Positions 54,746 to 60,141 of a DNA stretch of 64,000 bases are shown one piece after another. Every line of letters starts with the position of its first letter. Position 1 is the first letter of the stretch. Position numbers and translations under genes: made by a program. Location: assembly GCF_053078305.1 (NCBI RefSeq), contig NZ_CP166879.1, one strand, 5' to 3'. The notes under the pieces were generated by a model, which ran no database searches, was not told the DNA's origin, and saw only the letters and a list, made by a program, of their open reading frames with translations.

Positions 54746-54887
54746 AAGCGCGGGGTTTTACTGTAGAATGACTGCGGGTGCTTGAGGGGGTCTGCCTCGG
54801 GCATGCTGCCGTAAGGCAGACGGAGAAAAGCCCCAGTTAACATTACGTGTCCTGCAAGACGCTTAACATTAATCTGAGGCCCAATCT

Positions 54888-55094
54888 ATGTCACACAACC
54901 GTAGGTTAGCCTCTTACGTGCCGGAAGGCAAGGAGAAGCAGTCTATGAAGCAGCAAAAGGCGATGTTAATTCGCCCTGATCGTCATCTGTTTAACCGTCA
55001 TAGTGACGGCACTGGTAACGAGGAAAGACCTCTGCGAGGTACGGATCCGAACCGGCCAGACGGAGGTCGCTGTCTTCGTAGACTACGAATCTGA
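54888..55094 (+). CDS. small arginine-rich hypothetical ORF
   Basis: 68-aa ORF downstream of Q with a weak RBS; may be non-coding pR'/tR' leader. Confidence 0.2.
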   Translation: MSHNRRLASYVPEGKEKQSMKQQKAMLIRPDRHLFNRHSDGTGNEERPLRGTDPNRPDGGRCLRRLRI

Positions 55095-55275
55095 GAAGTA
55101 AGAGACCAGGCGGGGGAGTAATCTCCCGCCACCTCTGATGTGTCAGGCATCCTCAACGCACCCGTACTTTATTTGTCATATGCTCCGCAAAATGCAGGTT
55201 GTCGTTGCAACCCGTGCGGTAATTTTTTGTGTGCGAGTGCTCAAAAAACGTTGATTTTCATAAAAGGATAATTTT

Positions 55276-58176
55276 ATGCTGCCAGACCAGCGACCAGCGA
55301 CCAGCGACCAGCGACCAGCGACCAGCGACCAGCGACCAGCGACCAGCGACCAGCGACCAGCGACCAGCGACCAGCGACCAGCGACCAGCGACCAGCGACC
55401 AGCGACCAGCGACCAGCGACCAGCGACCAGCGACCAGCGACCAGCGACCAGCGACCAGCGACCAGCGACCAGCGACCAGCGACCAGCGACCAGCGACCAG
55501 CGACCAGCGACCAGCGACCAGCGACCAGCGACCAGCGACCAGCGACCAGCGACCAGCGACCAGCGACCAGCGACCAGCGACCAGCGACCAGCGACCAGCG
55601 ACCAGCGACCAGCGACCAGCGACCAGCGACCAGCGACCAGCGACCAGCGACCAGCGACCAGCGACCAGCGACCAGCGACCAGCGACCAGCGACCAGCGAC
55701 CAGCGACCAGCGACCAGCGACCAGCGACCAGCGACCAGCGACCAGCGACCAGCGACCAGCGACCAGCGACCAGCGACCAGCGACCAGCGACCAGCGACCA
55801 GCGACCAGCGACCAGCGACCAGCGACCAGCGACCAGCGACCAGCGACCAGCGACCAGCGACCAGCGACCAGCGACCAGCGACCAGCGACCAGCGACCAGC
55901 GACCAGCGACCAGCGACCAGCGACCAGCGACCAGCGACCAGCGACCAGCGACCAGCGACCAGCGACCAGCGACCAGCGACCAGCGACCAGCGACCAGCGA
56001 CCAGCGACCAGCGACCAGCGACCAGCGACCAGCGACCAGCGACCAGCGACCAGCGACCAGCGACCAGCGACCAGCGACCAGCGACCAGCGACCAGCGACC
56101 AGCGACCAGCGACCAGCGACCAGCGACCGTAAATCAAGAAAGTCTGTAAAATCTGTTGAACCAGACATTGCCGACCGGGCTAACAGCTGGCTCAAATCTT
56201 ATGGACTTGATTACAAACTGGAGCAGGCACCACTTAACAACGAGATCGATAACGCACTGGATGCTTATTTTTCGAAAAATGGCGGCGCAGGCGGTAATCG
56301 TCCCGACGTAAAACTCCTTGTTCAGGACAAATACGGCAAGCAGTATCCCGTTCTCATCGAGTATAAAGGCTACAAGGACAGGCTTATCAGACTTGGCAGC
56401 AACGGTATTATTGAGAACAAAGATGCCAGAAAAGAATGGAATTTTAAAAATATTAATGGATACGCGGTGAATGGCGCAGTCCATTATGCCAACGCACTTC
56501 TTCAGTTCACCAATTACCCTGATATTATTGCTATTGGTATGACCGGCTGGCGCGATGATGATACAGGCGAACTGCATCATGAAATCGGCGTGTGGTACGT
56601 ATCAAAGAATAATTTAGGAGCCGGGCAGAAGGTTGGTGAATTCACCGACTTATCATTCCTTGCTGACAAAAATGTTGATGGATTTCTCAACAAGATAAAG
56701 CTGCTTAATCTTCCTCCCGAAGAACTGGAAAAAATCAAGGCCAGCAAAGAGGAAGAGATAGACACGCGACTTTCCCGTCTGAATAACGATATTTACCAGA
56801 ATGAAAAGGGGCTTGGTGAAAGCGATCGTGTTTACCTTGTTGTGGCTACCGTTATTGCAACGTTGGGGATTCCGGGAAAGTTAGCACCGCTGGATAAAAA
56901 AGAACTGACCTCTTCAACGGAGGAGGACTTGCGTGATGGTGATATTATTTTCAGGAAAATAAGGAATTTTTTAAGGCTGAAAGCTGTTCCTGAAACAAAA
57001 AGAGAAATGATTTTGCGCTCGTTGCAAAATACGCTGTGGACTGAAAACATTAACAAACCAGTCAACGGTGAAAGCCAGTTAAAGCGCGTGTTTGTTAAAG
57101 TTGTTGATGATCTTGGGGAGTATTACAAAATCGGACTGACCACCGATTTTACGGGCAAACTGTTTAATGAGATGTATCGCTGGCTTGGATTTACGCAGGA
57201 CAAACTCAATGACGTCGTTCTGACACCACCTTATGTTGCCACATTGCTGGCACGACTCGCCAGAGTAAACAAAGATTCCTATGTGTGGGATTTTGCTACA
57301 GGTTCTGCGGGATTGCTTGTGGCTGCAATGAATGAAATGCTCATTGACGCCAGAGAAAATATTCACTCACCGAATGAACTACAACTTAAGGAAGCGCAAA
57401 TCAAGGCTGAACAGCTTCTTGGCCTTGAGGTGTTATCCAGTATTTATATGCTGGCCATCCTGAATATGATTTTGATGGGGGATGGTAGCTCGAATATCCT
57501 CAATAAAGACTCGCTAGCCGATTTTGACGGCAAGTATGGATTTGGGAAAACAGGAGAAAAATTCCCTGCGGACGCATTTATTCTCAATCCTCCGTATTCA
57601 GCTAAAGGTAACGGCATGATTTTCGTGCAGAAGGCGCTGTCGATGATGGATAAAGGCTATGCTGCAGTGATTATCCAGAGTTCAGCCGGCACAGGAAAGG
57701 CTACGGAGTACAACAAAAAAATACTCAAGGAAAATACCTTGCTGGCAAGCATCAAAATGCCTGCGGATCTGTTTATTGGTAAATCAAGCGTTCAGACGTA
57801 CATTTACGTTTTTCAGGTAAAAATTCCGCATAACGCGAAACAGGCTGTTAAGTTTATCGACTTTTCCAATGACGGCTATGCTCGCTCTAATCGCAAAAAG
57901 GCAAGAAACAATCTTGTTGATGCCGATCGTGCAAAAGAGCGTTATCAGGAGGTTGTGGATCTGGTTCACTTCGGGAAAGGTTGCCTTAATATCTTTACGG
58001 AGGATGAATATTTTGAGGGAACAATCGATCCTGATAGTGGTGAGGACTGGAATCAGACTAGGCCAGTAGATACCAGACCGACACTGGAGGATTTTAAAAA
58101 GACGGTTGGCGACTATCTTGCGTGGGAGGTGTCAAAACTTCTTCAGGGGCGTGATGCGTCAGAAAAAAAGCAGTAA
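55276..58176 (+). CDS. gamma-class N6-adenine DNA methyltransferase with N-terminal DQRPATS repeat domain and candidate PD-(D/E)xK nuclease module (BcgI-A-like / HsdM-like)
   Basis: 966-aa frame; ATG at 55276 with an AGGA RBS. Motif X/I ...VVLTPPYVATLLARL...VWDFATGSAGLLVAA; motif IV FILNPPYS. Between the repeat and the MTase: RPDVKLLVQDKYGKQYPVLIEYKGYK. Contains the 120 x 7-nt repeat in frame. Confidence 0.8.
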   Translation: MLPDQRPATSDQRPATSDQRPATSDQRPATSDQRPATSDQRPATSDQRPATSDQRPATSDQRPATSDQRPATSDQRPATSDQRPATSDQRPATSDQRPATSDQRPATSDQRPATSDQRPATSDQRPATSDQRPATSDQRPATSDQRPATSDQRPATSDQRPATSDQRPATSDQRPATSDQRPATSDQRPATSDQRPATSDQRPATSDQRPATSDQRPATSDQRPATSDQRPATSDQRPATSDQRPATSDQRPATSDQRPATSDQRPATSDQRPATSDQRPATSDRKSRKSVKSVEPDIADRANSWLKSYGLDYKLEQAPLNNEIDNALDAYFSKNGGAGGNRPDVKLLVQDKYGKQYPVLIEYKGYKDRLIRLGSNGIIENKDARKEWNFKNINGYAVNGAVHYANALLQFTNYPDIIAIGMTGWRDDDTGELHHEIGVWYVSKNNLGAGQKVGEFTDLSFLADKNVDGFLNKIKLLNLPPEELEKIKASKEEEIDTRLSRLNNDIYQNEKGLGESDRVYLVVATVIATLGIPGKLAPLDKKELTSSTEEDLRDGDIIFRKIRNFLRLKAVPETKREMILRSLQNTLWTENINKPVNGESQLKRVFVKVVDDLGEYYKIGLTTDFTGKLFNEMYRWLGFTQDKLNDVVLTPPYVATLLARLARVNKDSYVWDFATGSAGLLVAAMNEMLIDARENIHSPNELQLKEAQIKAEQLLGLEVLSSIYMLAILNMILMGDGSSNILNKDSLADFDGKYGFGKTGEKFPADAFILNPPYSAKGNGMIFVQKALSMMDKGYAAVIIQSSAGTGKATEYNKKILKENTLLASIKMPADLFIGKSSVQTYIYVFQVKIPHNAKQAVKFIDFSNDGYARSNRKKARNNLVDADRAKERYQEVVDLVHFGKGCLNIFTEDEYFEGTIDPDSGEDWNQTRPVDTRPTLEDFKKTVGDYLAWEVSKLLQGRDASEKKQ
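55288..56127 (+). repeat. perfect heptanucleotide tandem repeat (CAGCGAC) x 120, 840 bp
   Basis: Read directly: 840 nt of uninterrupted CAGCGAC units beginning 12 nt after the MTase ATG; translated in frame as 40 x DQRPATS. Confidence 0.97.
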
Positions 58177-58250
58177 ACTCCCGTCTTGCAGAGCTTGAGC
58201 GGGAGTTTATTAAATCTGGTGGTAAATGGGAAGAATACACAATCGAAAGA

Positions 58251-59449: not shown

Positions 59450-59630
59450 GTATCCGGAATCCTGTTAGTTATACGGAAAGTACACAGAAAGGAAGGTGCG
59501 ACCGCAATTAATAACAAAATCTTAAAAATCGCATATGGCACTATTAGTTTTCTAAATATTGTATATTTTGAGTATTGTAGGATATCCCCTGTAACGAAGT
59601 TTGCGTAACAGCATTTTGCTCTACGAGTTT

Positions 59631-59660
59631 GCCAGCCTCCCCCAGTGGCTGGCTTTTTTT
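59631..59660 (+). terminator. rho-independent terminator (GCCAGCC ... GGCTGGC plus T7)
   Basis: Read directly. Confidence 0.7.
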
Positions 59661-59898
59661 GTATCCGTTCAACAGGAATGTTACATACCTCACAATTAAG
59701 TCAGTTGAAGGTTGTCTGCCCGGATGAGAATTTGTTAGAAAATTTCTGCATGGTGAATCCCCCTGAGCGGCGGGGCATATCAGCGTCACAGGTGTTTCTG
59801 TTTTACCTCTATCCTTTCTGTGCGGGTTCAGGTGCTGATACTGAACTCACCGGGAGGCACCCGGCACCATGCAGTATACAGAGATTAGGCATATACCA

Positions 59899-59925
59899 GG
59901 GCCCCTCATAGCAGGGGCCTTTTTA
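59899..59925 (+). terminator. rho-independent terminator (GGCCCCT-loop-AGGGGCC plus T5)
   Basis: Read directly. Confidence 0.65.
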
Positions 59926-60141
59926 CATGCAAAAAAAAGCCGCCCCGGGAAGAGCGGTTGGCAAGAAGAAAAGCAATATGAACAATTAATTAACGCTGCG
60001 AATAATACCTTACAGTAATCACCCTGCGCAACTGTGAGGAGTGTATTTCTTTTTTGCGGGTGGTTGTCTTTTTCCCTTGTGTTTCGGGACTTCCGTTCAC
60101 TCCTTATCTTATTCAGTACATTATCCCGGCCGGGAGGATTC

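Follow-up and report, generated by a model that had tools for sequence, protein, structure and literature searches.

In Escherichia coli, phase variation is usually ascribed to DNA inversion and Dam methylation, not to repeat slippage. The latter is familiar from Haemophilus and Neisseria and their phasevarion loci (Type III mod, Type I hsdM/hsdS), contingency loci in which a repeat whose unit is not a multiple of three sits just after the methylase start, ON and OFF frames both occur among isolates, and two start codons lie in two frames. In E. coli, one such gene has been described, M.Eco131I (ECSTECDG1313_5492), a phase-variable Type III mod of E. coli strains that produce Shiga toxin (STEC) with a CAGCGAC[n] tract, for which fragment-length analysis of three strains revealed a mixture of lengths within their cultures (Atack et al., 2018, NAR, PMC5909438). 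Here, we describe a candidate for a second one in a 64,000-nt stretch of NZ_CP166879.1 (hereafter the window, in which all coordinates are given, plus strand unless stated). It is a restriction-modification (R-M) cassette of two genes that lies, together with a hok/sok locus, behind the antiterminator gene Q of a lambdoid prophage, and the first gene of which opens with a very long tract of the heptanucleotide GACCAGC.

Two further systems serve as yardsticks for what surrounds this repeat. BcgI is an A2B enzyme made of an A subunit, an R-M fusion, and of a HsdS-like B subunit (Smith et al., 2013, PMC3592470). The Shiga toxin (Stx) phage 933W has a late leader for which its record (AF125520; Plunkett, 1999) lists the promoter pR' (20666-20693), a qut site (20707-20714) and possible rho-independent terminators at 20726-20748 and 20929-20957. 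Mapping in phages of types Stx1 and Stx2a put 258 nt between the start at pR' and the 3' end of tR', and the transcript has been named StxS (Sy et al., 2020, PMC7547250). Compared with these systems, the window reads, with a good deal of confidence on our part, as a composite of four parts: (i) an insertion in Q, (ii) hok/sok and BcgI-like R-M genes, (iii) a (GACCAGC)n slippage switch and (iv) a position of the cassette upstream of pR'.

The tract, which Tandem Repeats Finder (TRF) reports as GACCAGC x 120.6 and 100% perfect, occupies 55285..56128. These 844 bp and the hok/sok locus both lie inside the interval covered by the original prediction made for this DNA, in which neither was mentioned. 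The tract belongs to the open reading frame (ORF) of a nuclease-methylase (55276..58176, 966 aa), the start of which reads ATG-CTG-CCA-(GACCAGC)120-GACCGT-AAA... and is preceded by a ribosome-binding site (RBS), AAAGGA at 55263-55268, with seven bases between it and the ATG at 55276. The repeat is open in all three frames, each of which encodes the same heptapeptide, SDQRPAT, and it is only the register from ATG to enzyme that counts, the two being in frame when the number of copies (n) is a multiple of three; with n = 120, the window is in the ON frame. Homologues from Neisseria, Providencia and Methylophilaceae (72-73% identity) start with M exactly at the repeat end (MAQSIEPNIADLANGWLK...). 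The residues that follow the repeat, SVEPDIADRANSWLKSYGLDYKLEQ (VEPxIADLANxWLKSY), are conserved in homologues from other genera, which indicates that they are translated, and no ATG, GTG or TTG lies in frame between the repeat and these residues in the window sequence, where the sole in-frame start is upstream of the repeat. Taken together, the starts of the homologues, the conserved residues and the missing intermediate start mean that translation must cross the repeat. Most alleles have a second ATG eight bases upstream of the first, in another frame (ATGATTTTATGCTGCCA), where the window has ATA, and one allele (L041; handles of this form designate the loci compared) has just two copies of the repeat, MLPDQRPATNKSRK..., and resembles a seed from which the tract could have grown. 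On its other strand, the repeat forms an open frame of RWSLVAG repeats (minus strand, 55176-56195), which public annotations call 'YXWGXW repeat-containing protein' or hypothetical protein, and the Prokaryotic Genome Annotation Pipeline (PGAP) starts the enzyme gene at internal codons, giving 653- or 569-aa products; both the YXWGXW call and the internal starts are annotation artefacts caused by the repeat.

The enzyme core, preceded by ATG-CTG-CCA and the tract, comprises 681 aa (56131-58173). It matches the PADLOC profile REase_MTase_IIG PDLC03616 over its full length (E=4.8e-234) and a second PADLOC IIG profile of 637 positions (E=7.8e-45), and in Pfam it matches N6_Mtase and, weakly, VRR_NUC. 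Aligned with homologues 72-86% identical from Salmonella, Providencia, Neisseria and Methylophilaceae, it displays three invariant blocks, R57-P58-D59...E77-Y78-K79 (RPD...EYK, assigned to a PD-(D/E)XK nuclease), D387-F-A-T-G-S-A-G (DFATGSAG, methylase motif I) and N486-P-P-Y (NPPY, motif IV). Two NCBIfam models, hsdM (36 bits vs a cut-off of 242.75) and MAD2, remain sub-threshold and, since the hsdM score is so far under its cut-off, the public 'HsdM family' label applies at the domain level only. Sequence searches of the PDB, with the enzyme alone and with a seven-sequence profile, returned no match and hence no relative with a solved structure. The second gene (58251..59360, 369 aa, start codon uncertain) encodes a specificity subunit that matches PADLOC Specificity_II, a Type II specificity subunit (1.3e-18), and contains two Pfam Methylase_S domains, that is, two target-recognition domains (TRDs). 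No ATP-dependent motor (HsdR/Res) or helicase gene adjoins the pair, which has hok as its left neighbour and the pR' leader as its right one.

A nuclease-methylase fusion chain accompanied by a separate, two-TRD HsdS-like subunit in the absence of a motor gene is the layout of type IIB systems. There is thus a strong case, at the level of sequence, for a BcgI-like type IIB cassette with a predicted A subunit, in which a PD-(D/E)XK nuclease is fused to a gamma-class N6-adenine methylase, and a predicted two-TRD B subunit. The likeness to BcgI concerns the two genes, the joining of nuclease and N6-adenine methylase in one chain, the HsdS-like two-domain B subunit, the lack of a motor subunit and also size (681 + about 369 aa in the window, 71.6 + 39.2 kDa for BcgI), and the annotators of phage PhiR12_3 have named the large protein 'BcgI alpha chain-like'. 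In contrast, BcgI is a chromosomal Bacillus enzyme with no repeat switch, to which the window proteins are similar at the profile level only. Type IIB enzymes cut both strands on both sides of a bipartite site, using S-adenosylmethionine and Mg2+, and the window system is placed among them by its sequence.

The specificity genes are mosaic, TRD1 and TRD2 having been swapped independently among prophages (22-33% vs 95-99% identity by halves), and the specificity of the S subunit appears to be diversifying as in Type I families. In its central region, a 24-bp in-frame repeat (58657-58723, x 2.8 by TRF) encodes IEELEAAH, three units of which are found in the window and one to three among related loci, irrespective of the recognition domains carried. 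It resembles the repeat of EcoR124I/II, which alters the length of the spacer in the recognition site. In about six of 33 loci, hsdS is truly split, truncated or disrupted by an insertion sequence (L003, L005, L008, L017, L031 and L041); several other 'split hsdS' calls were rejected as annotation artefacts on identical sequence. The G+C content of the enzyme core (44%) and of the specificity gene (35%), compared with 49-50% for Q and nanS-p, makes 56131-59360 a low-G+C segment, consistent with foreign origin, and the closest non-enteric homologues of the enzyme are found in Neisseria (73% aa identity).

How variable the tract is can be seen in 26 loci, namely the window and 25 others, the sources of which are complete E. 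coli genomes plus a single phage genome. Across this set, n lies between 16 and 120 (median 74.5), and the RBS-preceded ATG is in frame in seven of the 26 loci, the frame of the second ATG/GTG in another seven and neither in 12. Even where the flanks agree at every position over about 4 kb, n differs: 83, 58, 56 and 64 copies are found in four O111:H8-type loci, the identical-flank loci of G8, G6/7 and SCU-104 have 99, 83 and 65, and further pairs have 83/76, 82/50 and 65/18. In short-read contigs, the tract is collapsed or coincides with a contig end. Irrespective of frame, 32 of 33 loci have an undamaged 2-kb enzyme ORF, and both ON and OFF frames thus occur with an intact enzyme ORF. A unit that is not a multiple of three, lying between start and protein, in a tract whose length differs from one otherwise identical locus to the next, is what characterises contingency loci, and going by this pattern the repeat is probably a random on/off switch of the enzyme. 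In such a switch, replication slippage would change n and the enzyme would be made only when n is a multiple of three, in a manner that would be stochastic, heritable and reversible, the window being in the ON state, and the second ATG of most alleles may allow weak expression in one other frame. When made, the nuclease-methylase would, with its S subunit, methylate and restrict a bipartite site. What sets the window apart from the Haemophilus and Neisseria loci is its 7-bp unit, its very long tract, its E. coli host, its location in a prophage and the nuclease present in the enzyme.

The parallel with M.Eco131I is closer still. CAGCGAC is a rotation of GACCAGC, and the two genes share not only the heptanucleotide but also the leader, TTGATTTT...GGA...TTTTATGCTGCCAGAC, giving MLPDQRPATSDQRPAT..., as well as an E. 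coli/STEC host and an n that varies between strains. When plasmid NZ_CP182309.1 (L042, 3250-3505) is compared with window 55235-55300, ...GAAAAAGCTTGATTTTTATTGAGGGAATTTTTATGCTGCCAGAC(CAGCGAC)29 faces ...CAAAAAACGTTGATTTTCATAAAAGGATAATTTTATGCTGCCA(GACCAGC)120, with a similarity that starts about 40 nt upstream of the ATG. Four leaders were aligned, and none departs from the others in the block TTGATTTT, the start of which is 25 nt upstream of the ATG. What follows the repeat is different. M.Eco131I is a Type III Mod whose TRD is central, the next gene is of the DEAD-box helicase family (presumed Res), and mod is borne by 92-117-kb plasmids in eight of 5426 complete genomes; in the one plasmid inspected (L042), mod adjoins mobA, a relaxase gene and the DEAD-box helicase family gene. 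The window gene, by contrast, resides in lambdoid prophages, is a nuclease-methylase fusion with a separate S subunit and has longer tracts, up to 120 units. That it might simply be the published STEC mod was considered and rejected, since the cloning primer is absent from the window and the downstream sequence, the replicon and the neighbours all differ.

Because the leaders are the same and the enzymes are different, a module consisting of start codon and repeat has been joined to two unrelated R-M enzymes, and this leader would hence be portable. Among viral contigs, all 17 leader hits that could be read further (17/17) lead into the BcgI-like gene, and the Type III mod primer was not found in a scan of these contigs, nor was the leader with repeat in a scan that took one genome from each species. 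Literature searches with the repeat written as GACCAGC, single or doubled, returned nothing relevant, and the rotation CAGCGAC led to the study of Atack et al. (2018). The searchable literature yielded no account of the BcgI-like locus, and Escherichia goes unmentioned in the accessible part of a survey of simple sequence repeats in Type I systems (PMC7383803). M.Eco131I, with which the window gene shares its switch module, is therefore the only repeat-switched methylase of E. coli that we found in that literature.

How the cassette came to lie behind Q is recorded in Q itself. The window Q (54296..54745; public annotations start at 54320, giving 141 aa, and the identical protein matches PF06530 Phage_antitermQ) is 67% identical (aa) to the Stx1/933W-type Q over residues 1-135 and then ends ...SQFSGHTGN*. 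The tail of the 933W-type Q, ...SVFYQRKNSLRS, reappears at 59353..59380 as QLKNILQS, attached to pR', which translation against L026 and 933W (YQRKNSLRS*) and blastn boundaries identify as a remnant of the last 8-9 Q codons, and in Stx1 phages lacking the R-M genes (L026, L027 and L028) Q runs straight into the leader. Because the similarity of Q ends at residue 135 and its tail resurfaces at 59353-59380, hok/sok and the R-M genes together form a 4.6-kb insertion (about 54726-59352) that interrupts the final codons of Q and parts the gene from its promoter. To judge from Q relatives, the Q-hok-cassette arrangement is old: a related tail is retained by 141-aa Q proteins with as little as 74-88% identity, and in P0127 (Q 74% identical) hok follows Q on two contigs, both of which break at the repeat. 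The exact window Q protein has hok and the cassette downstream in all ten contexts that were read. A diverged hok, repeat and R-M set (88% identity) is found in another prophage context in E. coli E7-1N7 (L018, NZ_CP134805.1 3001-7295), where it ends at an IS4 remnant, and prophage contigs of Salmonella enterica (L040) begin within the repeat. The module thus travels as one piece.

The hok/sok type I toxin-antitoxin locus (54776..55171) is recognised by Rfam RF01794 with 97.6 bits (gathering score 59; match 54776-54947), and 54763-55171 is 92% identical to mokW/hokW/sokW, which is sited elsewhere in 933W. Compared with the intact hok of L001, the hok ORF (54945-55101) has a +1 T frameshift, TTAATTCGCC instead of TTAATCGCC, and the window hok is by its sequence a pseudogene, with hok/sok RNA elements that look intact (the hok 3' stem-loop at 55109-55131 has a fold z of -2.9); some related prophages keep an intact hok. 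A sigma-70-type promoter, TTGAAA-16-TAGAAT (54742..54769, 10/12 match), overlaps the Q stop codon and ends 6 nt before the 5' end of hok mRNA (Rfam model start 54776). An equivalent -35/-10 pair precedes hok at loci that are not behind this Q (L018 and L027), or not next to Q at all. This promoter is thus best read as that of hok mRNA and not as pR'. The possibility that it is the pR' of this Q allele was rejected in view of the 933W-type leader located downstream and of the equivalent hok promoters in non-Q contexts.

That leader is complete. Window 59353-59659 is 92.5% identical to 933W 20651-20957, with all four elements annotated in 933W in register: pR' (-35 TTTACA at 59368-59373 and -10 TATCAT at 59390-59395, 10/12 match), qut (ACATTGCC, 59409-59416), the promoter-proximal terminator 1 (59426-59449, homologue of 933W 20726-20748, a 7-bp GC stem followed by T6 at 59426-59445, hit by the consensus scan, with a z of -0.8 only) and terminator 2, which is tR' (59631-59660, a 7-bp stem followed by T7, z = -4.9; 933W 20929-20957 aligns to 59631-59659). 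The pR'-to-tR' segment (59402..59660) is a homologue of the StxS small RNA (sRNA), which ends at tR', and its length agrees to the base (59402 + 258 = 59660). Terminator 3 (59899-59925, a 9-bp stem followed by T5, z = -2.5) is that of a STnc100/PasD-family sRNA (59719..59930; Rfam RF02076, 167.6 bits, gathering score 47, model 1-206 of 206). Such sRNAs are the immediate upstream neighbours of sialic acid esterase genes in prophages (bioRxiv 10.64898/2026.05.13.724894), and the one in the window, directly upstream of nanS-p, is an ordinary member of the family with no notable difference. The three hairpins with U-tracts on which the original prediction had commented are real according to a fold check, in a 10.5-kb region that has 22 terminator-like sites against 10.0 +/- 3.3 expected from shuffles. 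Their interpretation as unusual insulation of the cassette has to be abandoned, since all three are present with the same spacing in Stx1 phages and a non-Stx prophage without R-M cassette (L026, L027 and L028), and 933W, which also lacks the cassette, likewise has conserved terminators. The three terminators, like the sRNAs, were known before.

The leader also locates the site of stx. In Stx phages, it comes directly after Q and before tRNAs and stx, whereas in the window 4.6 kb separate it from Q, 8-9 Q codons are attached to it and nothing is inserted after tR'. Homology between the window and stx-bearing cassette prophages breaks at 59662 and resumes at 59677-59690 (blastn). At this 59662/59677 site, stx1c is inserted in L002 and L026, and a methylase remnant, tRNAs and stx2b are found in L003. 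The order is Q-hok-RM-leader-stx1c-sRNA-nanS-p in 2013C-3033 and Q-hok-RM-leader-methylase remnant-ileZ-argN-argO-stx2b-nanS-p in 04-00955. From these breakpoints and annotations, the stx-equivalent site is the 15-bp gap between tR' and the sRNA (59662..59677, no strand), which is empty in the window. Because cassette and stx occur together at different points, they are neighbours, not alternative occupants of one slot. The claim that the cassette sits in the stx slot thus holds for the coarse interval, Q to nanS-p of a Stx-family lambdoid prophage, and fails at finer resolution, the stx point lying downstream of tR'; the very alignment against Stx and non-Stx prophages that had been proposed as a refuting check places the cassette outside the stx-equivalent position. 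With its end at 59360, the cassette is upstream of the pR' homologue (59368-59395) and consequently not readable from it, which runs counter to the idea of transcription from pR' under Q antitermination.

What, then, transcribes the cassette? Inspection of 55100-55275 revealed no convincing promoter, the TTGATTTT block being without usable -10 pairing, and the stretch from hok to the R-M start showed no terminator-like site. In lysogens, the cassette is probably transcribed by read-through from the hok promoter and, after induction, probably by the antiterminated early-right transcript that makes Q. Q itself should not control the R-M gene, because this gene is upstream of pR'. PhiR12_3, which bears the cassette, has been deposited as a complete phage genome, which suggests that this Q is able to act at some late promoter. 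Among the candidates, only the 933W-type leader has a qut, and we infer from the sequence that the window Q acts at this 933W-type site.

Several points weigh against the composite reading. Copy numbers come from assemblies and not from single molecules, some tracts contain obvious assembly errors such as the poly-C of L008 and single-base deletions (the error-bearing tracts being L008, L002, L005, L016, L017 and L022), and n = 83 recurs in four unrelated assemblies (L006, L009, L023 and L024, i.e. PhiR12_3 from ECOR13, an O111:H8 strain, G6/7 and UCPROB-002), which is odd for a fast-mutating tract. About one-third of loci in frame is also what is expected of a dead, unselected gene. A nuclease-bearing enzyme that is first OFF and then ON should attack the unmethylated chromosome, which the cell would somehow have to tolerate. 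An AlphaFold model from the seven-sequence alignment is poor (mean predicted local distance difference test score 49.8) and leaves the nuclease fold unconfirmed; because it is too poor for a fold search, the nuclease domain is read from motifs and profiles. From hok up to the start of the R-M gene, a consensus scan detected no promoter of sigma-70-like type, so that, of the RBS and possible promoter with which the original prediction had credited the cassette, the RBS (AAAGGA) stands and the promoter does not. Finally, the window Q is only 67% identical to the 933W-type Q whose qut it would use.

These points are the raw material for other explanations of the repeat. It might be a hypermutable variable-number tandem repeat with no regulatory role, either because the R-M genes are unexpressed, decaying cargo or because the enzyme is made constitutively from an internal or non-canonical start downstream, and the 7/7/12 split between frames, which fits random expectation, the broken hsdS genes, the adjoining hok pseudogene, the absence of a detected promoter and the internal starts chosen by PGAP could all be accommodated in this way. 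We nevertheless regard it as unlikely. The enzyme ORF has been kept in all but one of the 33 loci, the conserved residues come straight after the repeat with no in-frame start codon in between, internal starts would remove these residues or the nuclease motif, and there is a good RBS ahead of the ATG upstream of the repeat. Moreover, two ATGs in two frames before the repeat, as in most alleles, is a known contingency-locus layout, and the same leader and repeat head a methylase that was shown to be active and to have mixed tract lengths in culture (PMC5909438). The (SDQRPAT)n peptide might instead be a functional, disordered N-terminal tail of variable length that tunes assembly or activity, an idea to which the identical, stop-free heptapeptide in all three frames and the span of in-frame alleles from 18 to 120 units lend some appeal. 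It is very improbable, because two-thirds of loci are out of frame with the RBS-preceded ATG, each slippage step of the 7-bp unit shifts the frame, homologues and the two-copy allele work without a tail, and an identical tail is found on an unrelated Type III Mod. Hardly credible, in our view, is that the differences in n are assembly artefacts of an 840-bp perfect repeat whose real length is stable. The errors in the six tracts listed above are clear, short-read assemblies do collapse or break at the tract and deposited tracts were found to be shorter than measured ones (Atack et al., 2018, PMC5909438), but a range of 16-120 across complete long-read genomes from many laboratories is far beyond consensus error, most tracts are perfect, and for the Type III mod, which has the same repeat, sizing of fragments gave real heterogeneity (PMC5909438).

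As for position, the competing view is that the cassette is a stx-equivalent late-operon moron, transcribed from a pR' at 54742-54769, antiterminated by Q and separated by the three terminators from nanS-p and the lysis genes, which they would insulate. It has in its favour a good promoter match overlapping the Q stop codon, the location between Q and nanS-p, the terminator-like sites after the cassette and the fact that Q and this promoter always travel together in the ten contexts read. We consider it quite unlikely since the promoter is placed for the 5' end of hok mRNA and has equivalents at hok loci away from this Q, the region transcribed from it has no similarity to the 933W qut, the complete 933W-type leader (pR', qut, t and tR') comes after the cassette, stx has its own point of insertion and co-occurs with the cassette, and the terminators are there in phages that have no cassette to insulate.

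The remainder of the region conforms to expectation for a relative of 933W. An ORF map of 52-64 kb gives the order Q, R-M genes, nanS-p, two small genes, holin, endolysin and the start of Rz which, together with collinearity with 933W, bears out the Stx phage-like gene order first noticed in this DNA. Equally well founded was the statement that tRNA and stx genes are lacking, as ARAGORN found no tRNA in the window and the ORF map no stx ORF. The nanS-p-type 9-O-acetyl sialic acid esterase gene (60142..62055; Pfam DUF1737, SASA and DUF6645 on near-identical genes) is the first late-region gene after the leader and is 82% identical in nucleotide sequence to 933W L0105. A class II holin (62767..62982) and an endolysin (62987..63520) follow. 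Three segments of this right part, 59690-61331, 62057-63615 and 63853-64000, are collinear with 933W at 82-90% nucleotide identity, their counterparts being the yjhS-like gene, L0106-S-R and Rz, respectively. Two side observations concern the end of the leader region. The 5' part of the STnc100-like region (window 59677-59873), single in the window, is tandemly doubled in Stx1c prophages and a non-Stx prophage (L002, 9393-9589 and 9666 on; L026, 3304-3500 and 3577 on; L028, 2127-2340 and 2417 on). On the minus strand, a GC hairpin with a T-run (59940-59957) stands back to back with terminator 3 just upstream of nanS-p, and the two might form a bidirectional terminator pair.

If the composite reading is right, this locus would be the second repeat-switched methylase of E. 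coli, after the gene of Atack et al. (2018), and seemingly the more widespread of the two. In the assembly collection, 1987 blocks are indexed for the linked Q protein, the 90% cluster of the enzyme has 841 members, and the cassette is hosted by lambdoid prophages of STEC, enteropathogenic E. coli and commensal strains, including Stx1c and Stx2b phages. On the practical side, the repeat breaks short-read assemblies and misleads annotation, which offers a spurious YXWGXW protein and truncates the real gene, and the late promoter, the StxS-like RNA, the empty stx site and the STnc100-like RNA now have positions in this prophage that are exact to the base. A far bolder scenario, which we view as a long shot, is that OFF-to-ON slippage after loss of methylation leads to self-restriction, SOS and stochastic prophage induction, with the leader and (GACCAGC)n acting as a portable switch cassette on at least two unrelated enzymes, of which the one here bears a nuclease of its own inside an inducible prophage that at times encodes Stx; if true, a repeat-length clock would be coupled to spontaneous release of phage and toxin and to the methylation state of progeny phage. 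Short of this, if the switch works, lysogen populations would be mixtures in their restriction of phages and plasmids, in the methylation of their genomes and in that of the phages they release, which would bear on the spread of Stx phages, on bet-hedging in defence and possibly on epigenetic regulation in STEC.

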